Source: Promethearchaeota archaeon (GTDB taxonomy: Archaea; Asgardarchaeota; Lokiarchaeia; Sigyniarchaeales; SOKP01). Taken from it: DNA of 22,611 bases. The notes beneath the pieces are model-generated. The model was not told the origin of the DNA, made no database searches, and was given only the letters and a program-made list of their open reading frames with translations. Of this stretch, positions 1,564-22,611 are shown in pieces. Each line of letters begins with the position of its first letter. Position 1 is the first letter of the stretch. The DNA is taken from contig JBHLPW010000070.1 in the NCBI GenBank assembly GCA_048939015.1, positions 1-22,611 on the forward strand, read 5' to 3'. Made by a program: the position numbers and the translations under genes.

Positions 1564-2715
1564 TTATTGTAGGACAAACTTTTCATAATCAGAACTACAA
1601 GGATGGTTATCAGTAACCCAAAACTCCTTTTTACTTGGAAAAACAATTATTGATCCCAAGGTTCCTGCTGCGGGACCATGTGTACATACGGAGAAATCAT
1701 TTTTTTCTCCGTTTTCATGATCGCTTAATATATTTTTAATGGTTTCCATATCAATTTTCCCTTTGAAGGTCTCTAATAATTTAATTTCTCTCTGATAACG
1801 CCTTATTGGAGATTCAATGGGATTTATATCCATATCATCCATCTTAAATCGTACATAGTCAGGTAAATTAGCATCCTTTAGTTCTTCAGTTTGATAATGG
1901 TTTGTATGAGCTAAGATCCCATCAGCAGGTCTCCGAATTGCGTGTCGAGTGCTTGTAGTTTCAATAACGCACGTATCTCCTGAAGAATCCATGAATCCAT
2001 AATGGCATCCATTTGAACGGTTTGGAAAGTTAGTAATAAATTTAATAGCTTCTTGAGTAGTTGCACAAGTTTCAAGCATTTCCTGTACTAAAAATGTACC
2101 TGGAACGCCCTTCAATCTAAAATCGAGAGGTTCTTTTTTCCAAGAACGACCATAGTTATAACCAATAGCTAAACCTTTTTCATTTAACCCCATATGACAA
2201 CCTGATAAAGGATATTGGGTATAATTAACATTTTTAAATCCCTCTTCTGGAATTTCTTCTCGAACTATTTGAAATGGTTGTAAAACATTAGGAAAATCAT
2301 AATTACGCCCAAAAATCATTAGGTTATCTAAAGTAGCTTCATGAAGGGCAAATATCATAGAACAAGCCGGAATTGGAGGATTTTTATAAAGAGAATTTGG
2401 ATCACCTGACATGACTTCGATAAAATGTGCTCCGTGAAGTATATACTTTTTAACTAAAGCTCCTTTTCCTATTGATATCATTTTCTCATATTGATTAGGC
2501 ACAAAACTTTGTAAGTATTTTTTTATATTCTTTTTACCCATAATCCCTAATCCAAGTTTAATAACTGAAAGAGGAATTAATTTAGAGGTAACTTCTGAAA
2601 ACATTTTTGAATGGAAAACTACATCAAACATATTACGAATTTTAGCTTTAAGTTGCTCTCCCTGTTGGAATCCACGTTCAGAAGGATTTCCCTCTAATCT
2701 AATAAAGTCTACCAT
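1564..2715 (-). CDS. C45 family autoproteolytic acyltransferase/hydrolase (Ntn hydrolase)
   Basis: G..SERGFQQG N-terminus, A-CS autocleavage nucleophile, GRNYDF, GLNEKGLAIG, HTNHY, S..RY motifs. Confidence 0.9.
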   Translation of the reverse strand: MVDFIRLEGNPSERGFQQGEQLKAKIRNMFDVVFHSKMFSEVTSKLIPLSVIKLGLGIMGKKNIKKYLQSFVPNQYEKMISIGKGALVKKYILHGAHFIEVMSGDPNSLYKNPPIPACSMIFALHEATLDNLMIFGRNYDFPNVLQPFQIVREEIPEEGFKNVNYTQYPLSGCHMGLNEKGLAIGYNYGRSWKKEPLDFRLKGVPGTFLVQEMLETCATTQEAIKFITNFPNRSNGCHYGFMDSSGDTCVIETTSTRHAIRRPADGILAHTNHYQTEELKDANLPDYVRFKMDDMDINPIESPIRRYQREIKLLETFKGKIDMETIKNILSDHENGEKNDFSVCTHGPAAGTLGSIIVFPSKKEFWVTDNHPCSSDYEKFVLQ

Positions 2716-2795
2716 AATGAACCTAAATTATTAAAATTAAAAAAATAATTTCATTTTATTATTGTAATTTTCAAACTTGTTATATATAGAATATT

Positions 2796-3407
2796 ATGGC
2801 CAAAAAATCTCCAATATATATTGAAATTGCTAATAGAAAAGATGTTGAAGGAATTATAAATGTATTAAAACAAAATTTAATTGAAATAAGAGACATTGAA
2901 GAAATTTCAAAAGAAAAAAGAAAAAAGTTAGAACAAGAAGGTTTTTTGCGAAGAGAAGTCGATATTGAATACTATATCAAGCTTATTGATGATCCTAATG
3001 CAGACATTTATGTTGCAAAAAATGATAATGAAGAAATCATCGGATTTGCTAGCATACATAGAAAAAAATATGATATCCTAAAAGTGCGTGATGTTATTGG
3101 AGCTCTTTCTTTCGAAAATGAAAAAACTAAGAATTTACTTCTGAATGAAGATACAGAATTCACCTATTTGGATCAAATCAGCATTCTTCCAGAATATAAA
3201 CGATGGGGAGTAGGTACTGCTATTTTTCAAAAGTCTCTAAAAATAATAAATACTCCTATTGTTGCTTTTATTGTAGAAGAACCAATATTCAATAAAGCAT
3301 CATTTTATTGGCATATACGTAATGGCTTTGAATTCTCAGCTGTAAGTATCGGAGAATATAAAGGTAAAGTATTTAAATTCCAGATTTTTGTACATTGGAA
3401 TGATTAA
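2796..3407 (+). CDS. GNAT family N-acetyltransferase
   Basis: IIGFA strand, YLDQISILPEYKRWGVGT acetyl-CoA-binding motif A, N.AS..WH.RNGF motif B. Confidence 0.88.
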   Translation: MAKKSPIYIEIANRKDVEGIINVLKQNLIEIRDIEEISKEKRKKLEQEGFLRREVDIEYYIKLIDDPNADIYVAKNDNEEIIGFASIHRKKYDILKVRDVIGALSFENEKTKNLLLNEDTEFTYLDQISILPEYKRWGVGTAIFQKSLKIINTPIVAFIVEEPIFNKASFYWHIRNGFEFSAVSIGEYKGKVFKFQIFVHWND

Positions 3408-4496: not shown

Positions 4497-5198
4497 TTAT
4501 GGAGTTTCTTCCATTTCTGGTACTTCTTTAAGAGATTCAATGATATTTATAATATCTTCTGCTAGTTCATAACGTTCGGCTCTATATTTCTCACGATTCA
4601 ATCTTTTTTCGACACGTAAAGGCGATCCAACCTTTACTTTTACGCCATCTCCAGTAAACATGTTTAAAATTTTAGTTTTATAAGTTGAGATGGCTATTGG
4701 GATAATTGGAGCATCCCCTGCAATTGCGAATTTTATTATCGCAGCCATTGATTTCACCTGAACTTCCCGATCATGTTTAGCTTCCGGAGTCATACCTACG
4801 AGATCGCCTTTCTCGTTTAGTATCTCAAAAACTTTTTCTATAGGTTCAGTATCTTCTTTATTTTCAGTTCCTCTAATCATTCCAAGACTTTTTAGAATTG
4901 GGCCCATAATTTGATGCTTCATTAATTTCGGGTCAAGCATGAAATGAATTTTTCTTCCAGATACTTGAGCTATGATTAACATGTCTCTAATGATATTTGG
5001 GGTTATTGTTGTTAAAATCGCTTTTCCTCGAAAGGGAATATTATCTTGCCCTTCGATATGTAAATCCATGAAAGCTTTAAAGAATAAACCACTGAGCCCT
5101 TTTACGGCACCATAAAGCATATCAAAAGCTATCAACTTTGGATTTAATTTATCTCCTTCGTCCTTTATTTCCGGACTTGTACTTTCACTTTCACTCAT
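4497..5198 (-). CDS. PlsC/lysophospholipid acyltransferase-fold protein with degenerate catalytic motif
   Basis: IEGQDNIP..G.AIL, LKSLGMI, GDLVGMTPE, APIIPIAI, VKVKVGSPL. Motif I NHxSxxD is replaced by TITPNIIRD. Confidence 0.8.
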   Translation of the reverse strand: MSESESTSPEIKDEGDKLNPKLIAFDMLYGAVKGLSGLFFKAFMDLHIEGQDNIPFRGKAILTTITPNIIRDMLIIAQVSGRKIHFMLDPKLMKHQIMGPILKSLGMIRGTENKEDTEPIEKVFEILNEKGDLVGMTPEAKHDREVQVKSMAAIIKFAIAGDAPIIPIAISTYKTKILNMFTGDGVKVKVGSPLRVEKRLNREKYRAERYELAEDIINIIESLKEVPEMEETP

Positions 5199-5214
5199 AT
5201 TTTCTTACCTTTAA

Positions 5215-5409
5215 TTATAGTTTATCAATAAAATCATTAACTTCTTCCATTTTTTTTTCATAATACTCTTTCAAATCTTTTTCTGAAACAAAAGTAGGTA
5301 TTACTTTTTCAGTATAAAGATCGAAAATCGTACTTAACTTAGTTTTATGCTTAAGGGTTTCTAGGAATTCTTCTCCTAGTTCCATTAAATTTTTGAAAAA
5401 ATCTGACAT
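5215..5409 (-). CDS. Small acidic helical protein (64 aa) within the activase operon
   Basis: ATG 5409 is preceded by GGAGGTG inside the end of the upstream gene. Tightly packed (4 bp and 16 bp gaps). The track start at 5436 overlaps the activase. Confidence 0.7.
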   Translation of the reverse strand: MSDFFKNLMELGEEFLETLKHKTKLSTIFDLYTEKVIPTFVSEKDLKEYYEKKMEEVNDFIDKL

Positions 5410-5413
5410 ACGA

Positions 5414-6436
5414 TTAAAACACCTCCCATTTTCCACATCTACTTCCCCAACGAGCTATTACCTTGTTCTCGTCTTGAGGCATTTTAACTTGAACAATTTC
5501 ACAATTATTTGGACAATCTCCGCAATGAAATGTTGAGGTTTTGAATTCAATATCACTTACATCAAGACCTCTGAATACAGTTTCTGTTGGGTTGTCTAAA
5601 TAATAATCCCTTACAAGGATTGCCATTCCTAAAGCACCCATTAATACATTATATTTAGGTACTATTACTTCACAACCCAAGTGTCTTTCAAAAGCTTGAA
5701 TAATTCCTTTATTGTAGGAAACTCCGCCTTGAAATACTATTGGTTCGTTTAATTCCTTTCCTTTTGACAAATTATTCATATAATTCCTTACTAAAGAATC
5801 ACACAAACCAGCAATAATATCTTCTCTCGAATATCCCGCATTCTGTTTGTGAATCATATCCGATTCCGCAAATACTGTACATCTTCCTGCAATACTCACA
5901 GGATTTTTTGATCGTACAGCGTAATCTCCAAACTGTTCAATTGGAATTCCAAGTCTAGATGCTTGATGATCAAGAAAAGACCCAGTACCTGCAGCACATA
6001 CGGAATTCATAGCAAAGTCAACAATAATACCATCCCGCAAAATGATAATTTTAGAATCTTGTCCACCAATCTCTAAAATAGTACTAACGTCAGGATACAG
6101 AGATTGTGTAGCAACCGCATGTGCTATTATTTCTGTTTTCGCGAGATCTCCTCCAACAATTGCCTTTGTTAAATACCTTGCTGAGCCAGTAGTTCCACAA
6201 CAACGTATTTGATATTCTTGAAGTTGCTCACTTTGTTCAACTTTTTTTCTTAAGTCTTCCATACCTGCTTTAGCAGACTCAATAGGAGATCCGCGATTGC
6301 GTAAGAATACACTCGTAAGAACATTACCCTCTATATCCATTAAAACGAATTTACAGGTAACACTACCAATATCAATACCAAGAAAAGCATCAAGCTTTCC
6401 GTCTTCCTTTGCTACTTTATCAGATACTTGTACTAT
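5414..6436 (-). CDS. ATP-dependent acyl-CoA dehydratase/reductase activase (BadF/BadG/BcrA/BcrD family) with C-terminal Cys cluster
   Basis: The in-frame region upstream of ATG 6340 encodes FLGIDIGSVTCK (phosphate-1). Also TGSARY, EIIAHA, EIGGQDSK, CAAGTGSFL, GRCTVFAESD, FQGGV, CGDCPNNC..RC. Start inferred at ATA 6436, 6 nt after GGTGA. Confidence 0.88.
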   Translation of the reverse strand: MVQVSDKVAKEDGKLDAFLGIDIGSVTCKFVLMDIEGNVLTSVFLRNRGSPIESAKAGMEDLRKKVEQSEQLQEYQIRCCGTTGSARYLTKAIVGGDLAKTEIIAHAVATQSLYPDVSTILEIGGQDSKIIILRDGIIVDFAMNSVCAAGTGSFLDHQASRLGIPIEQFGDYAVRSKNPVSIAGRCTVFAESDMIHKQNAGYSREDIIAGLCDSLVRNYMNNLSKGKELNEPIVFQGGVSYNKGIIQAFERHLGCEVIVPKYNVLMGALGMAILVRDYYLDNPTETVFRGLDVSDIEFKTSTFHCGDCPNNCEIVQVKMPQDENKVIARWGSRCGKWEVF

Positions 6437-6451
6437 TTTTATTCACCATAC

Positions 6452-7642
6452 TTATGTTTGAATTAATTGAACACATTCTTGAAAAAAATGGGATCCATTA
6501 GAACTATAAAAATTATCTTTCTCAGCTTTAAGTGAGGTTCCTTCATTTTCTAATTTATATTTACGTCTTGATTCCATTAGATCAGCAAAAGCTTCTAATC
6601 TTGTTCTCATGCCTTCAGTTCCAGAATGTTCATCAAAGGAAAAATAAATAACAGGTAAATCGAATTGTTTCTTTAATTTATTTGTAATAATAGTTCGTGC
6701 CACAACCTCAGGCATGCAAGTGAATGGATATTCATGTACAAAACCATCGAATCTTGAATTTGCAGCATGAATATAACTTCCTATAACCCAAATTGCTTCC
6801 CCTCCAATATCCATAGGGATATAAGGTTTTGCCAAATGCTCCAACCATTTTCTATGGTAATTCAAATGAAATTTATGTACGACCCAATCATATAAACTTA
6901 GAAATTGGTGAACTTCTATGCCCATGTCCCCAAGTTTTCGTCGAATATCTACATTAACATAGGGCTCTAAACTTATATGAATTTCTCCGGTTAACATAAC
7001 TTTCAGGGGATTTCGTGTATTATCAACATCAATTTTATTAAAATCTTTCTTAATTACATCCTTAAAATTTCGTAATTCCTTAAGAGTATTAGCTTGGTCA
7101 AGCTTATTTAATACATTATTTAAAACATCAGTAGTGTCTCCTTGGTTTCGTTCATATGCACGGAATAAACCTTCAGCAGTTTGAATATCGTTTAATAACT
7201 TAGCTTTCTTTAAGAAAAAAATAATTGCTTTTACATATCTAGGATAATCGAAAAGGCTACTTTTACCACTAACTTCCTGAAGAGTCTTTACCCAATGAAA
7301 TTCAAGTAAATCTGCTTGATCTAATGGAATGACTCTCACATCTTTATACCCCATATCATGTAAAAGGCGTTCCTGAACTGCATGATAAAAACCAAAACGA
7401 CAAGGTCCACAATCTATAGCCATTACTAAAGTATCAGCACCTTTTTTAATAGCACTTGCAAAATCTCCTAATGTTGCTTTAAATGGAAAGCATACAAATT
7501 CGGGACTGTATTTTACTCCGATTTTAATGGCTTCTCGATTAGTTGGGTCAGGTAATACCACTTTGATTGAAGGATCTAACTGTTCAAAAAGTGTCTTGAA
7601 CGCTACCCAATTTGGACCCATGTTAGGAAATGAAAGAATCAT
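6452..7642 (-). CDS. 2-hydroxyacyl-CoA dehydratase/DUF2229-like Fe-S reductase subunit (PlsR/Ger reduction-domain-like)
   Basis: SFPNMG, SPEFVCFPFK, CGPCRFGFY, GEIH...EPYVN, PFTCMPE, FDEHSGTEGMRTRLEAF. GGAG RBS upstream. Confidence 0.85.
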   Translation of the reverse strand: MILSFPNMGPNWVAFKTLFEQLDPSIKVVLPDPTNREAIKIGVKYSPEFVCFPFKATLGDFASAIKKGADTLVMAIDCGPCRFGFYHAVQERLLHDMGYKDVRVIPLDQADLLEFHWVKTLQEVSGKSSLFDYPRYVKAIIFFLKKAKLLNDIQTAEGLFRAYERNQGDTTDVLNNVLNKLDQANTLKELRNFKDVIKKDFNKIDVDNTRNPLKVMLTGEIHISLEPYVNVDIRRKLGDMGIEVHQFLSLYDWVVHKFHLNYHRKWLEHLAKPYIPMDIGGEAIWVIGSYIHAANSRFDGFVHEYPFTCMPEVVARTIITNKLKKQFDLPVIYFSFDEHSGTEGMRTRLEAFADLMESRRKYKLENEGTSLKAEKDNFYSSNGSHFFQECVQLIQT

Positions 7643-14261: not shown

Positions 14262-15101
14262 ATGTCATCTAAAATGCAAATTATTTTTGGGGACTGGCGG
14301 TTAGGTAGAATACTCATGTTTATATTTATTACAAGTTCGGTATCATATGGACTGGGGGGAGTTTTGATAAACATTCTCTTAGCAGGTTTAGTGGGAGCTA
14401 CATTATCAGCTGGTGGTTTTTTTTTTGATTATCTTGGAGATTATAAAAATGATCGTGAATCGGGTAATATGAAAAATCCTATAGCTAGAGAGACTTTCTC
14501 CCCAAAAGGTGGTTTTATATTAATTATTATATGCTTTACCATTAGTATAATTACATGTATCATAGTAAATCCTTGGGCTTTAATTCCCTTAGTATGTTTA
14601 ATATGTGTAATTGGCGGACTCGTACAAGGAATACTTGATAGTGCCCTCTTACGTGCATTTAGCCTAGGAATTCTTCAAGGATTTTATGTCTTAATTGGTT
14701 CTCTTTTTGCCTATAAGTTTGAATTAAGTGTAATTCTATTGGCTGCATTTTTATTTTTTGCGATGACAGGTGCAAGAGTTTTAGGAGATACAAGAGATCT
14801 TCCTTACGATCAAAAAACAAATACAAATACAATTCCAAAAAAATATGGTATAAAATGGGCAGGATATTTTCTCTTAATTAATGAGCTTTTAGCTTATATA
14901 ATTGGGATTTTCATTTACTTGTTGGGTTTATTAGGAATTTGTTATTTAATTTGCATCATTTGTACAATTTCGATTGGAATTCCTTTGAATCTTTGGTTCA
15001 TTTTAAGACCATCCCCAAAAACTGCACGAATAGTTAATGTTTTATCTTTAGCAATTCTAGGTTCATTATTTATAATTGGAATGTTTTTAGGAAGATTATA
15101 G
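14262..15101 (+). CDS. UbiA family prenyltransferase (DGGGP synthase-like)
   Basis: Multi-TM protein with Asp-rich motifs FDYLGDYKND...KNPIA and GDTRDLPYD....NTIP.KYG. Confidence 0.88.
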   Translation: MSSKMQIIFGDWRLGRILMFIFITSSVSYGLGGVLINILLAGLVGATLSAGGFFFDYLGDYKNDRESGNMKNPIARETFSPKGGFILIIICFTISIITCIIVNPWALIPLVCLICVIGGLVQGILDSALLRAFSLGILQGFYVLIGSLFAYKFELSVILLAAFLFFAMTGARVLGDTRDLPYDQKTNTNTIPKKYGIKWAGYFLLINELLAYIIGIFIYLLGLLGICYLICIICTISIGIPLNLWFILRPSPKTARIVNVLSLAILGSLFIIGMFLGRL

Positions 15102-17726: not shown

Positions 17727-19130
17727 TTAATTTAATAATTCATTCTTCCTTTTACGGACTCTTATTGCTTGAATAGCAATGGTTTCAAGAAGTCTGCGTT
17801 GATTTGTAGATAACCAAGGCCCCTCACAGTCTATAGCAGCATAAGGAATATCACTTTTGTTAGCTAAAGGGCGAATTATAGCTTGTGAGTTCATAGCAGG
17901 TTGACAATTGAATGCTCCCATATTTATTAATCCATCGAACACACATGATTTAATTGCATGGATAAACCTTCCAGTTATTACTGGTGTTTCAGTCAAACTA
18001 TTTGATGTTACATACTTATTACCAGCTTCAATAAGATCAATATAATCTACATGAGGATCAAACATTAAGCCTGTCTTACTCATTATTTTTCTATATATAT
18101 TACATTGTGAAGCTAGAAATTCCATTTTATCCAATCCTCTTTTTGCTTTTACAGCATCATTTTTATATTGCTCTTCTACATTTGAAATGTCTAACGAAGC
18201 TTCTTCAAATTGCAGTCTAGGATTAAAAATGCTCTTTTTAAAACCGTATCGCATCACTGGTTCAGACAATAGCAAGTTTAATGATTCAACAAGATCGACA
18301 ACTTTAACAATTATTCCTTTTTCAAGAAAATATTCTTCTACGGGATAGTGATTAAATAATAAGTTTAAACCCCCAAAAATCAAGATTTTAGGAGTTTTTT
18401 CAACTTTAGCCTTCAATGGAATTGTAGACACCTCTCGTGCCCATCTGATTAGTCCAGTTCGTAAGGATTTTCTCCCTACTTTCACATTATTTATAAACTC
18501 ATCTGTGATCGCTTCAAATTGATCAATTGCTAAATATTTATCTTTGGCAACACATTGTAGTGCATTACGTGCTTCCACGAGATAATGACCGATAATAAAG
18601 TTTACCTGTTCAATTAAAATAATCTCTGGTTTTAATCCTAAGTATTTATTTTTATAACTAGGACCTATACAAAAAAATGCATCTTTTATGTTCTGTCGTT
18701 TTTTAAATAAGATATCCCAGAGAACGGGCCATGCTCCATTTTGGCAAGGACCATGCTGATTCAATGGATCACGATAAATTGTAATTTCATTTTTTTCCCG
18801 ATATTCATTAATATCTTTTAAAATCGATCCTGCAATTGCTAGACTGGGAACACATTCTCTACCAGAGCATACTTGTTTTGCGTATTTCAATATATTTTCA
18901 TCAGTCTCTTGACTTACTCTAATTTTTCTATTATGTTGATTGTATAAATTTATTACAAGACGTGCTCCATATGGATTTCGAGCTGCTGGTTCAACAAATA
19001 CAATCCTAGGATCATCATAATCCACTCTTTTGCCTTTACTATCTATAATATACTCATAATTTTTTGAAAACTTAATTTCTCCTACAAATTTCGATGATAA
19101 TTCTACATCACTCATAATTTTATGCTTCAC
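17727..19130 (-). CDS. Fe-S reductase/dehydratase partner subunit (PlsR-like)
   Basis: CSGRECVP, GPCQNGAW, ETPVITG, FDGLINMGAFNCQP, PYAAIDCEG..RLLET. GTG start overlaps the upstream TAG (TAGTG). Confidence 0.8.
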   Translation of the reverse strand: MKHKIMSDVELSSKFVGEIKFSKNYEYIIDSKGKRVDYDDPRIVFVEPAARNPYGARLVINLYNQHNRKIRVSQETDENILKYAKQVCSGRECVPSLAIAGSILKDINEYREKNEITIYRDPLNQHGPCQNGAWPVLWDILFKKRQNIKDAFFCIGPSYKNKYLGLKPEIILIEQVNFIIGHYLVEARNALQCVAKDKYLAIDQFEAITDEFINNVKVGRKSLRTGLIRWAREVSTIPLKAKVEKTPKILIFGGLNLLFNHYPVEEYFLEKGIIVKVVDLVESLNLLLSEPVMRYGFKKSIFNPRLQFEEASLDISNVEEQYKNDAVKAKRGLDKMEFLASQCNIYRKIMSKTGLMFDPHVDYIDLIEAGNKYVTSNSLTETPVITGRFIHAIKSCVFDGLINMGAFNCQPAMNSQAIIRPLANKSDIPYAAIDCEGPWLSTNQRRLLETIAIQAIRVRKRKNELLN

Positions 19131-22081
19131 TAAACTACAATTGATAATAATTCTACTTTTTTCATTCGACGTTCTTCGATAATATCAAGAAAGGCACCTA
19201 CTCTTGTTTCAAAACCCGCGTGGGCAGTATGAGAATCGATCTCAAGATAACAAAAAGTAAGTCCGGCAAGGTCATACCTAAATTTATGATACATTGTACC
19301 ATCAGGACCACAGGAAAAACAAGAAACAAGACAAATATATAGGTTGGGATAATTTTTCACATATTGTATTGCATTATCAATTTTTTGTGTATAACTCCAT
19401 ACATTTCTCTCATATATATGATCCCCTTTTGATAACATTTGTAACATATCAGCAGGTATTGCGTTATAACCTCTACTGACAATTTTTCGAGGGAGCGCAA
19501 TATTAATTTCTGGTGGATAGACAACATAAGGTCTACCTGCAATTATAACACTCGGTTCATTTAATAATTTCTTTAGTTTTTTTTTTCCTTCTTCTCTGTA
19601 TTTTTCCCAGAATTTATTGTTATGGTTTAATGCTTTCTGTCCTGCTTTAATTCCTTCTTCAAAACTCAACCCTATCTTTACTGCAATTCTGCCAAATTCA
19701 TTAAGGGTCATTTGTATCAAATGAAGAGAAGTTCCTATATGAGGTGATAATATCCTATCACTTACATGCTCAAATTGAGCTCGTATCACATCAGCAATAA
19801 TCGTGGTAGAAGGGCAAGTATAACCATGTAAAAATCCATCGGGAATTTCATATTCAATTTCTCGAGGGATAAAAATATAACTCACATCACGTTTTATTAG
19901 GTAATCCACTTCTCTGTGAACCAATTCACATGGATAACATATAGAAGCAAGAGCATTAATTGTATCTTTTTTGGATCCTTGAGAAATTTCTACATTGAAT
20001 CCAAGTTCATTGATAAATTTTACATATAAAGGGAACAATGTGTAAACTGTGAGTGCCATTGGAAGTCCAATTGTTCCTCGCGAATTTTCAATATTTCGAG
20101 CTCCAAATTCTTCAAACATCATTTTATTTCGGAATGCTACTAAATCTTGACCTTCTTTTATTTTAGTACTCTTTTGGCGTAATAATCTGTATTTTGAACA
20201 CACACCACCAAACGGGTAGATTTTTCCCCTTATATATATGTTTTGAATTTCACAATTATTCTCACACGACATGCATCTAAATGTTTTTCTTAGTTCAATT
20301 TCACCTGTTTCGAGTTTTGTTAAATCAAACTCTCGCTCAGAGATGATACCTTCCCTTAAAAGATCTCTTGCCATTAGTGCCGTTCCAATACACCCCATAA
20401 GTTCAGGGTGCGAAGGCACAATTACTCTTCGTTCCAAATGAGCCGCCATGGCTAGAGCAACCGATCTGTTTAAAGCAACTCCACCAAGAAATAGAATATT
20501 TTTTCCTACTTGACGAGGACCTATAATTCGAGAAATATAGTTTTCTGCAATTGAATAAACAAGTCCTGCAACAACATCTTCTCGTTTAGCACCTTGTTGA
20601 AGAGCATTTCTTAGGTCGGTATTGATGAACGCGGCACATCTTTCTCCAAATGCTATAGGAGCTAGACTTTTTATTGCAATATTACTAATTTCTTCTATTC
20701 CAATCCCCATATCAACTGAAGCAGATTCCTCAAGAAAACTTCCTGTCCCTGCCGAACAGCCCTCATTCATAGCATAATCAATTGGTACTCCTTGTAAAAA
20801 TGATATAAATTTCGAATCCTGACCCCCAATTTCAAAAACAGTGTCAACATTTGGGAGTTCCTCAACAGCTGCTCTAGCATGTGCTAATATCTCATTAAAA
20901 CTCCGACAATTATTTAAATATACTGAAACTATCTCTCTTGCTGATCCAGTCACTCCACATTGTATTACTTTAACAATTTTATTACTTAACTGATCTATTA
21001 GTCCCTTTATACACGATTTTGTTGCTAGGATAGGATTTCCCAATGTTCTTAAATAAACACTAGCACAAATTAAACCATCAGATACATTAAACAAGACAGC
21101 TTTCGTTGTAGTTGAGCCAGCGTCTATTCCGAGGATATAAGAGTCACCCTCAATAATTTTCTCCTGATTATTTTTAGTTACACGATAATCTAAAAGAGAT
21201 TCTGTGCCTTTAAGAGGTTTATGCCTCTTGAATTCAATTGTTGTATCCTTAAACCATTTTTTATTAGGTGTACACTCCTCCTGAATCTCTGATGCAAATA
21301 AAGAGGCTCCAAAAACAGCTAGATAAGGACTTTCTGGTAGAATTTTAATTTCAGATGAAGTTAGAAATTCTTGAAGGTGTTTAATAAATATTTTGTTTTG
21401 TGAAACGCCTCCAGAGACGACTATTAAACCTGTAGGCCACTGTGCTGAATCAATCATTTTGCTGACCTTACTCGCTAAATCATGGATTAATGTTTTTGCA
21501 ATATCCTCTGGTTGACATTCACCTTTATTTAGCTTATGAGTTGCATCGGATTTACAATGAACAGAACAACGAGTGGCTAACTGAGTATATTTACCATGCC
21601 GACTTGCCTCAATACCTTCTTCTATTGTCATTCCCATTCTTTGAAGTTGTTGAATTATGAACTCACCTGTTCCCGCAGCACACTTAGTAGTAGATATAAT
21701 ATTTTTTATTCTACCATTTTTCATAGGGTAAACACTAAAAGTTTCTCCACCTAGAGAGATTAAAATATCAGGTTTTAGATTGTAGTATGATAATGCTTTT
21801 TCTAAGCATTCCACTTCGGAAATATATGGTAAATTTAGAAAACTACTAGTAGCTTGACCCGTTATGACGATATTTGATTGACTATTTACACTATAGCGAT
21901 CAAATATTTTTTTTATCGTTTTTCTTGGAGAACCCTCATGTCGTACAACTTCACTTATTATTTGTCCACTTTCCGTTCTGCGGACCCATTTTACTGAAAC
22001 TGCGCCAATTTCTAAGCCTTCAAAATATTGAATTTCTTGTTGATTTATACCAGAAAGCGTCTCATTTAGCATTTTCTTCAC
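19130..22081 (-). CDS. Tandem activase-activase-DUF2229 protein (PlsA-like CoA-activase fusion)
   Basis: Activase 1: GLEIGAVSVK, GGET, KCAAGTGEF, RCSVHCKSD. Activase 2: GIDAGSTTTK, EIGGQDSK, CSAGTGSF, RCAAF. Cys linker CMSCENNC..GGVC. Reductase domain: GLPMAL, CYPCE, YTCP, GRPY, FSCGPD, EIDSHTAHAG..TRVGAF. Start GTG 22081 or ATG 22072. Confidence 0.9.
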   Translation of the reverse strand: MKKMLNETLSGINQQEIQYFEGLEIGAVSVKWVRRTESGQIISEVVRHEGSPRKTIKKIFDRYSVNSQSNIVITGQATSSFLNLPYISEVECLEKALSYYNLKPDILISLGGETFSVYPMKNGRIKNIISTTKCAAGTGEFIIQQLQRMGMTIEEGIEASRHGKYTQLATRCSVHCKSDATHKLNKGECQPEDIAKTLIHDLASKVSKMIDSAQWPTGLIVVSGGVSQNKIFIKHLQEFLTSSEIKILPESPYLAVFGASLFASEIQEECTPNKKWFKDTTIEFKRHKPLKGTESLLDYRVTKNNQEKIIEGDSYILGIDAGSTTTKAVLFNVSDGLICASVYLRTLGNPILATKSCIKGLIDQLSNKIVKVIQCGVTGSAREIVSVYLNNCRSFNEILAHARAAVEELPNVDTVFEIGGQDSKFISFLQGVPIDYAMNEGCSAGTGSFLEESASVDMGIGIEEISNIAIKSLAPIAFGERCAAFINTDLRNALQQGAKREDVVAGLVYSIAENYISRIIGPRQVGKNILFLGGVALNRSVALAMAAHLERRVIVPSHPELMGCIGTALMARDLLREGIISEREFDLTKLETGEIELRKTFRCMSCENNCEIQNIYIRGKIYPFGGVCSKYRLLRQKSTKIKEGQDLVAFRNKMMFEEFGARNIENSRGTIGLPMALTVYTLFPLYVKFINELGFNVEISQGSKKDTINALASICYPCELVHREVDYLIKRDVSYIFIPREIEYEIPDGFLHGYTCPSTTIIADVIRAQFEHVSDRILSPHIGTSLHLIQMTLNEFGRIAVKIGLSFEEGIKAGQKALNHNNKFWEKYREEGKKKLKKLLNEPSVIIAGRPYVVYPPEINIALPRKIVSRGYNAIPADMLQMLSKGDHIYERNVWSYTQKIDNAIQYVKNYPNLYICLVSCFSCGPDGTMYHKFRYDLAGLTFCYLEIDSHTAHAGFETRVGAFLDIIEERRMKKVELLSIVV

Positions 22082-22340: not shown

Positions 22341-22611
22341 ATTAAAGAAAAAAGTCATCTGCTAGTTTAATATTTAATAGGATTATTGGTTTTAAGTTAC
22401 AAACAAAAACTTTCTTAATATAATTCATTTGTTTTATGGAATAAGGGTAAAAAGAATCATTAAATTTTAACTTTAAAAGAAAATCCGTGATAAAATAATC
22501 CCAATTCAGTCCAAATTAAATCATTTTAAATATAAATATAAGTAACATAACATATAATTAAATTTTTAGCGGTTTTAATCAGACGAATATTATATTCAAT
22601 CTAGATCAACT

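Follow-up and report, generated by a model that had tools for sequence, protein, structure and literature searches.

The DNA examined here, called the window below, is the whole 22,611-bp contig JBHLPW010000070.1 of a Promethearchaeota archaeon (Lokiarchaeia; Sigyniarchaeales), and our subject is the operon of four genes at positions 4497 to 7642. An original prediction, made from the sequence, had described four co-directional genes lying 4 to 16 bp apart, and the coordinates, the strand, the families, and the motifs that it quoted were all confirmed. The four open reading frames (ORFs) are all on the minus strand, in the order Red2, activase, 64-amino-acid (64-aa) protein, and PlsC-fold protein, with intergenic gaps of 15, 4, and 16 bp, figures that are valid only with the activase starting at the ATA at 6436. 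The genes are as follows.

7642..6452, minus strand: Red2, an Fe-S subunit of 396 aa with DUF2229 in its N-terminal part and an HGD-D-like region (Pfam)
6436..5414, minus strand: single BcrAD/BadFG activase, 340 aa, with a C-terminal CxxCxxxC..C extension (PF01869, TIGR00241)
5409..5215, minus strand: conserved small protein, 64 aa, a predicted helical accessory protein (no family)
5198..4497, minus strand: PlsC-fold protein, 233 aa, without the conserved His of HX4D (PF01553)

Red2 carries DUF2229 over residues 8 to 72 (PF09989, 44.4 bits against a cut-off of 29.4) and an HGD-D match over residues 293 to 354 that stays below its cut-off (PF06050, 24.4 bits against 28.4), and its cysteine motifs read VCFPFK (C51), DCGPCRFG (C78 and C81), and PFTCMPE (C309). 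The activase scores 162.9 bits with PF01869 and 199.7 bits with TIGR00241, the acyl-CoA dehydratase activase model, whose cut-off is 125.4; its C-terminal extension, called the Cys4 tail below, reads HCGDCPNNCE...SRCGKW. The PlsC-fold protein matches PF01553 at 36.7 bits (cut-off 23). The proposed membership of the BcrAD-activase/DUF2229-HGD-D radical Fe-S class is borne out by Pfam, DUF2229 being the "D" domain of PlsA and Ger (PMC13159169).

There is no in-frame ATG, GTG, or TTG 5' of the GIDIGS phosphate-binding motif of the activase, and the apparent start is an ATA at 6434 to 6436. The same codon is ATA in three loci of the same genus (L016 to L018) and ATG in other relatives (MVQVSDK). 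A GGTG Shine-Dalgarno-like motif lies 6 nucleotides upstream of the ATA, and GGTG precedes the ATA in the same-genus loci as well. A frameshift or sequencing error at this place was ruled out by the recurrence of ATA in these three loci and by contigs of other sequencing runs (X2, X3, and X8), which span the activase junction without indels. Both observations therefore point to a real non-canonical start rather than an assembly error, and the activase probably initiates at ATA.

Conservation of the operon and its place in a seven-gene cluster

Close homologues of Red2 number in the hundreds, and all come from Asgard metagenome-assembled genomes (MAGs), mostly of Promethearchaeota/Lokiarchaeia. 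In a sample of 201 genomes of the phylum, Red2 orthologues with at least 65% identity were limited to one family, where 38 of 40 genomes carry one, and an orthologue at 50% identity was found in a sister family; the PlsC-like protein of the operon showed the same distribution (38/40 family genomes). We then considered the 52 species-representative loci that extend 3.2 kb or more beyond the Red2 orthologue on its downstream side. The activase follows on the same strand in all 52, and the small and PlsC-like genes do so in 51 and 49, respectively, making Red2-activase-small protein-PlsC-like the most stable block (49 to 52 of 52 loci). Conservation of the PlsC-like neighbor, which had been proposed as a check of the original prediction, is thus observed, and the arrangement is far beyond chance, the genomes behind these counts being related and hence non-independent samples.

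In sister genera, the block belongs to a longer series on one strand: HAD phosphatase (260 aa), tandem PlsC (~555 aa), Red1 (~355 aa), Red2, activase, 64-aa protein, and PlsC-like protein. This complete seven-gene order was seen in 17 species loci, and the gaps of 4 to 25 bp between cluster genes suggest co-transcription. The four genes of the window are the distal half of this Lokiarchaeial acyl-glycerolipid gene cluster. Wherever both were located, the tandem PlsC adjoins Red1, each gene being present in 40 of 45 family genomes, and the pair is often accompanied by the HAD phosphatase. The order in the sister family is PlsC (intact), PlsC (His replaced by Phe), Red1, Red2, and activase. Both halves of the tandem PlsC keep the HX4D and (F/Y)PEGT motifs (NHESHID/FPEGTRS and SHNSEWD/YPEGTTN), and the protein passes TIGR00530 with 165 bits against a cut-off of 102.95. 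The link to glycerolipid genes proposed at the outset, which had been drawn from the fourth gene of the operon, is therefore stronger than the operon alone could show, since Red1 always stands beside a tandem PlsC in which both HX4D motifs are intact.

Red1 and Red2 are full-length paralogues (24% identity, E = 8e-15). Red1 carries a full DUF2229 at 156.2 bits together with an HGD-D match of 27.7 bits (cut-off 28.4). Three cysteines are invariant in each subunit, namely, C51, C81, and C309 in Red2, as judged over 44 diverse relatives, and C63, C101, and C289 in Red1; this is what one would expect of a [4Fe-4S] site. Below, "the trio" stands for Red1, Red2, and the activase.

One complete genome, G083, has kept the HAD phosphatase, the tandem PlsC, and the PlsC-like gene (L019, G083:C6, 7142 to 11421), and a search of that genome for Red1, Red2, the activase, and the 64-aa gene found none of them. 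The presence of the acyltransferases without the trio fits a reductase that would act on ester lipids once they are complete, as happens in the anaerobic pathway of bacteria. Moreover, the retention of the PlsC-like gene ties it both to the reductase and to the acyltransferase module, and the 64-aa gene, missing together with the trio, appears to track the reductase. The position of the reductase in G083 is taken by a 204-aa deaminase-toxin-like ORF (PF14424).

Split of the cluster and a PlsA/PlsR-like pair in the same window

In the genome studied here, the tandem PlsC and Red1 are not beside Red2 and stand at the end of another contig, C34 (L011). The last 151 bp of the window, reverse-complemented, align with the last 151 bp of C34 (L011 8827 to 8977) at 98% identity. 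The window contig and C34 therefore abut, and the assembly can be closed at this point, so that the tandem PlsC and Red1 come to lie ~15 kb upstream of Red2. The features of the window on this side of the operon are the following.

22461..22611, no strand: contig-end overlap joining the window contig to C34 (151 bp, 98%)
19130..22081, minus strand: PlsA-like protein, 983 aa, with two activase domains and DUF2229 (BBD) (Pfam)
17727..19130, minus strand: PlsR-like second reduction subunit, 467 aa (alignment to fused proteins; no Pfam match)

The joined order reads (HAD ...) tandem PlsC, Red1, 0.55 kb, 983-aa PlsA-like protein, 467-aa PlsR-like protein, ~10 kb with other genes, Red2, activase, small protein, and PlsC-like protein. 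In two same-genus genomes (G008 and G156; L106 and L107), the tandem PlsC-Red1 pair followed by the PlsA-like pair is found on single contigs. Red1 and Red2 have been parted in this genus by an insertion of 7 to 15 kb (also in L015), and Red1 is retained in all five same-genus genomes sampled, at 85 to 89% identity. The idea of a minimal machine made of one activase and one reductase, which the operon alone had suggested, was thus not upheld, Red1 being adjacent in most genera and ~15 kb upstream here across the contig join. After the split, each half consists of one reductase subunit beside one PlsC-fold gene, and the presence of such a gene in both halves supports an acyl-glycerolipid substrate. 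Altogether, the PlsC link has been kept through at least three rearrangements: the cluster was split in this genus, PlsC is encoded by separate genes in the sister family, and insertions came between genes. On C34, the HAD remnant and the tandem PlsC are separated by genes for two large paralogous secreted-looking proteins of 795 and 889 aa, whose N-terminal signal-like sequences are near-identical (L011 373 to 5797).

The PlsA-like and PlsR-like proteins inserted between Red1 and Red2 resemble Ger-type proteins. The 983-aa protein is 39% identical to residues 6 to 946 of fused ~1,390-aa Asgard Ger-type proteins, the 467-aa protein aligns to residues 959 to 1392 of fused proteins (E = 3e-15 to 3e-21), and the pair aligns end to end with the fused ~1,390-aa proteins of other Asgard families. 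Only 6 other genomes among the 201 sampled, all in the same family, carry orthologues of the split pair with at least 66% identity. Red2 and the 467-aa protein share only the C-terminal 95 residues of the latter. The operon had been put forward as a PlsA/PlsR-type locus; judging by these alignments, the closer match to such a locus is this other pair of the window (17727 to 22081), and it is the 983- plus 467-aa type that the criteria of PMC13159169 would detect in Lokiarchaeota.

Correspondence of the trio to PlsA, PlsR, and Ger

In the account of Sahonero-Canavesi et al. (PMC13159169), Ger is B-B-D with short D and H segments after it, and the BBD core is conserved in all ether producers; a PlsA of Lactococcus cremoris has been studied in PMC12838417. 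In our control genomes, the DUF2229 family was matched in T. maritima (Ger) and in Lactococcus lactis. We mapped the domains of the trio onto fused Asgard Ger-type proteins and onto the split pair of the window. The activase corresponds to the second activase domain (B2) at 33 to 38% identity and is 36% identical to residues 317 to 634 of the 983-aa protein, Cys tail included. Red1 corresponds to the D region (23 to 26% identity), and Red2 corresponds to the PlsR region (residues 1026 to 1392 of a fused 1,395-aa Asgard Ger-type protein, 21% identity, E = 9e-8). Both Red1 and Red2 carry the DUF2229 of PlsA/PlsR/Ger, and Red2 also has the module of a short D (8 to 72) and a short H (293 to 354). 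The fused tandem-activase (BBD) arrangement is absent from the operon and present in the separate gene at 19130 to 22081.

All trio activases have the Cys4 tail; of the two activase domains of the 983-aa protein, the second has it and the first lacks it. Alignments of HadI, HgdC, MbdQ, and DCCP-R to the activase end near residue 280, before this tail. The activase retains the Cys of CAAGTG and of GRCTVF, which form the cluster-bridging pair in HgdC-type activators. Activators of this type work as homodimers, and one activase gene can therefore stand in for a tandem pair. On these correspondences, the trio appears to be an unfused, single-activase paralogue of the PlsA/PlsR class.

The PlsC-fold protein and the 64-aa protein

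The PlsC fold described at the outset for the fourth gene was confirmed (PF01553, 5KYM), and the catalytic His was found not to be conserved. The predicted structure (predicted local distance difference test [pLDDT] score of 85) has a single long N-terminal helix, and its top Foldseek match is T. maritima PlsC 5KYM at a template modeling (TM) score of 0.59, followed by LpxM, PatA, and GPATs. The HX4D position reads PNIIRD in the window protein. Many different residues take the place of this His in 121 relatives (P, K, Y, G, S, H, N, and others); six only have His there, and 115 have no His nearby at all. In the family, the Asp is kept, block III survives as "TPE," and 60 columns are invariant; the window protein fails TIGR00530 (33.5 against 102.95). 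Since the His of HX4D is not conserved, the protein is probably non-catalytic and unlikely to be an acyltransferase, and we regard it as a probable non-catalytic lipid-binding partner. Its public annotation as a "lysophospholipid acyltransferase" (LPAAT) is likely wrong as to activity.

The 64-aa protein has 12 orthologues with a mean column identity of 84% and 22 invariant columns. It has no Pfam or NCBIfam family, no usable Atlas match, and no similarity to the 983-aa or the 467-aa protein, and its comparison with a 68-aa ORF at the same position in the sister family was insignificant (hhalign probability of 3%). Complex prediction of the PlsC-like protein with Red2, with Red1, or with the 64-aa protein gave a score of 0.00, which speaks neither for nor against binding.

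Neighboring genes and a paralogous trio

Just downstream of the PlsC-like gene, the window carries a GNAT acetyltransferase and an AAT/CBAH-type Ntn hydrolase (PF03417/PF02275) at 1564 to 3407. This gene pair is kept across genera, in more than 30 related loci, and could be a further acyl- or lipid-related part of the neighborhood. A crotonase gene lies divergently upstream of the operon; its membership in the system is unsupported, as only one other locus (L033) carries a crotonase. A UbiA-family prenyltransferase is encoded at 14262 to 15101, between the two reductase systems, and is likewise unsupported as a member (38.5 against the DGGGP-synthase equivalog cut-off of 296).

Immediately upstream of the cluster, some genomes have a paralogous trio in which the Red1-like protein is fused to an N-terminal ~460-aa FAD_binding_4 (VAO/PCMH-type) domain. 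Such a fusion would make it a DUF2229 system linked to a flavin. A role of the FAD domain as an AGPS-like ether-lipid synthase was ruled out, the nearest solved sequences being cytokinin dehydrogenases, EncM, and DprE1. The fused genes are at these positions.

L113, 4614-7034: FAD-fused Red1-like gene
L114, 2568-4979: FAD-fused Red1-like gene
L008, 10625-12409: FAD-fused Red1-like gene

A proposed route from acyl-glycerolipid ester to ether

We propose, at what we consider about an even chance, that the operon is the distal half of an acyl-glycerolipid cluster in which Red1, Red2, and the activase would convert an acyl-glycerolipid ester to a vinyl or alkyl ether. Gene content, domain families, conserved cysteines, gene order, and the contig join are observed; how the subunits pair, which lipid they act on, that an ether results, and what the two small partners do are our inferences. 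The reductase/dehydratase is probably a heterodimer of the paralogues Red1 and Red2, and a stand-alone activase homodimer would replace the fused tandem activase domains of PlsA/Ger. ATP hydrolysis by the activase would send a low-potential electron into the Fe-S cluster of Red1/Red2, and this cluster would form a ketyl-type radical on the ester carbonyl of the acyl-glycerolipid that the tandem PlsC makes. The vinyl ether would then arise by reduction and dehydration, and the alkyl ether by further reduction. A route from ester to vinyl ether has been proposed for PlsA/PlsR, in the summary that PMC8788747 gives of it. The role of the His-less PlsC fold, and perhaps of the 64-aa protein, would be to bind the lipid at the membrane or offer it to the reductase, or to tether the enzyme, without any acyl transfer. 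A broader version, which we offer tentatively and consider less probable than the conversion itself, would be a self-contained Lokiarchaeial fatty-acyl ether pathway, with the tandem PlsC carrying out both acylations of a glycerol phosphate, the unfused, single-activase reductase forming the ether, and the PlsC-like and 64-aa proteins acting as a lipid-presenting adaptor of a new kind that serves a radical enzyme, so that "bacterial" ether lipids would be made by the archaeon's own machinery.

Several observations weigh against the ester-to-ether proposal. The only published lipid analysis of a cultured Lokiarchaeon, as cited in PMC13400652, reported archaeal lipids only, and none of the 80 best loci with a close Red2 orthologue comes from a cultured strain. 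Red1-Red2-activase trios of other Asgard families (30 to 35% and ~50% identity) have no PlsC-like gene within 5 kb and stand in unrelated contexts, and the bacteria-like contigs with Red2 relatives that were examined, which are short, carried no PlsC and nothing informative; the acyltransferase link is thus lineage-specific, belonging to one Lokiarchaeial order. The FAD-fused paralogous trio indicates that trios can take other partners, as a portable module would, and the kinship of the genomes inflates the synteny counts. Moreover, identity to PlsA-like proteins is low (21 to 38%), the Red2 fold stands at roughly the same distance from DCCP, HadBC, and benzoyl-CoA reductases, and the three-gene layout of an activator and two subunits is exactly that of 2-hydroxyacyl-CoA dehydratases.

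This last resemblance leads to the best surviving alternative, which we nevertheless consider unlikely: the trio would be a 2-hydroxyacyl-CoA-dehydratase-like or ketyl-radical enzyme acting on a soluble acyl-CoA and tailoring the acyl donor of PlsC (e.g., to a 2-hydroxy or enoyl form), the ester remaining untouched. An activator with two paralogous subunits is the HgdCAB/HadIBC layout, the activase core scores 118 to 128 bits against HadI and HgdC (128 with HadI), and PlsC needs acyl donors, so that its linkage would suit donor tailoring too. In the predicted structure of Red2 (pLDDT of 92), the best folds are those of DCCP (top), HadB/C, and BzdN/O or MbdN/O, with TM scores of ~0.5 to 0.56 and 10 to 17% identity, and HadB/C fits as well as any (TM 0.55). 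The sequence comparisons favor this alternative less. Red2 had no PDB match by sequence and no phmmer match to HadBC or HgdAB, its family profile matches HadC and DCCP over just 64 C-terminal residues (E = 2e-5 for HadC), and in the comparisons of sequence, profile, and structure that were run, it grouped with neither amino-acid-fermentation dehydratases nor aryl-CoA reductases. HGD-D is below the cut-off in both Red2 and Red1, whereas DUF2229 is above it, and the Cys4 tail is common to the trio activases and the B2 domain of the PlsA-like protein, whereas matches to solved activators end before it. Although the crotonase divergently upstream in the window would suit an acyl-CoA enzyme, it recurs in that single other locus, and the conserved cluster has neither a CoA-transferase nor a 2-hydroxyacid dehydrogenase, its neighbors being the HAD phosphatase, PlsC acyltransferases, GNAT, and the AAT/CBAH hydrolase. 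As for class I benzoyl-CoA reductases (BcrABCD/BzdNOPQ), the operon has only one activase, which scores 74 to 116 bits with TIGR02259, TIGR03192, and TIGR02261 against cut-offs of 313 to 578.

We find it quite improbable that the four genes act alone, a Red2 homodimer with one activase forming a minimal ester reductase while Red1 serves a separate system. Most genera and the sister family have Red1 directly before Red2, the unit that recurs across other Asgard families is the full trio, Red1 has been kept at 85 to 89% identity in 5/5 same-genus genomes, and the two subunits align with separate regions of the fused Ger-type protein; these points outweigh, in our view, the stability of the Red2-activase-small protein-PlsC-like block, which persists in this genus apart from Red1, and the precedent of the structural relative DCCP, which is a homodimer. 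No more probable is a general low-potential reductase of a non-lipid small molecule, DCCP-like, with acyltransferase neighbors that reflect inherited gene order and no shared function, since the PlsC-fold linkage outlasts three independent rearrangements, the 4- to 25-bp gaps suggest co-transcription, and the PlsC-like gene is strongly conserved beside the trio with its 60 invariant columns, even though DCCP/DCCP-R are the top structural matches, the trios of other Asgard families lie in unrelated contexts, and the synteny evidence comes mostly from one family of related genomes.

Implications for Asgard membrane lipids

Fatty-acid-based (ester or ether) lipids in Asgard archaea bear on the "lipid divide" and on the origin of the eukaryotic membrane. 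Ger homologues in Lokiarchaeota and Heimdallarchaeota were reported in 2022 (PMC13159169), and PlsC/PlsY homologues in Lokiarchaeota have already been published (PMC6737245, PMC13400652). The published lists are of isolated PlsC, PlsY, and Ger homologues, with no gene-cluster evidence of joint work, and the present locus adds such evidence in the form of a conserved operon in which a PlsA/PlsR-like reductase is coupled to acyltransferases whose active sites are intact. In the literature searched, we found neither the unfused trio form, nor its operonic coupling to a tandem PlsC, an HAD phosphatase, a His-less PlsC paralogue, and a 64-aa protein, nor the split of the cluster by a PlsA/PlsR-like insertion. 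The idea of bacterial-type ether lipids in Asgard archaea is itself already in print, and the compact seven-gene set makes it directly testable. If active, the unfused trio would also be a simpler system for mechanistic work than the ~1,400-aa fused enzymes. Finally, as the His-less "lysophospholipid acyltransferase" is widely annotated in Lokiarchaeial MAGs, conclusions about PlsC activity that rest on this gene are unsafe.

Comparison with known systems

Compared with PlsC (5KYM), the fourth protein of the operon keeps the PF01553 fold, the Asp, and the "PE" of block III, whereas the catalytic His is not conserved. DCCP is a homodimer with an [8Fe-9S] cluster and is not known to be linked to lipids. 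The DCCP/DCCP-R system of Carboxydothermus hydrogenoformans (PDB 6ENO/7YYL) gives the top structural match of Red2 and shares the activase-driven electron transfer; identity is 12 to 14%, and the Lokiarchaeial system has instead two distinct subunits with three invariant Cys each. With HgdCAB/HadIBC, it has in common an activator and two paralogous Fe-S subunits, the fold (TM ~0.55), and the three-Cys cluster sites, but its activator has the extra Cys4 tail, and its context is one of acyltransferases, with no amino-acid fermentation genes.

The nearest relatives in domain content are Ger (T. maritima Tmari_0479; D. alkenivorans) and PlsA/PlsR (C. perfringens Q8XL48/Q8XL47), for which the literature searched describes no PlsC linkage. 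The same domain families occur in both, in the same order of correspondence and in an anaerobic host. Unlike PlsA/Ger, the Lokiarchaeial system consists of three separate genes, with one activase domain instead of two fused ones, and is embedded with PlsC acyltransferases, a His-less PlsC paralogue, and the 64-aa protein.

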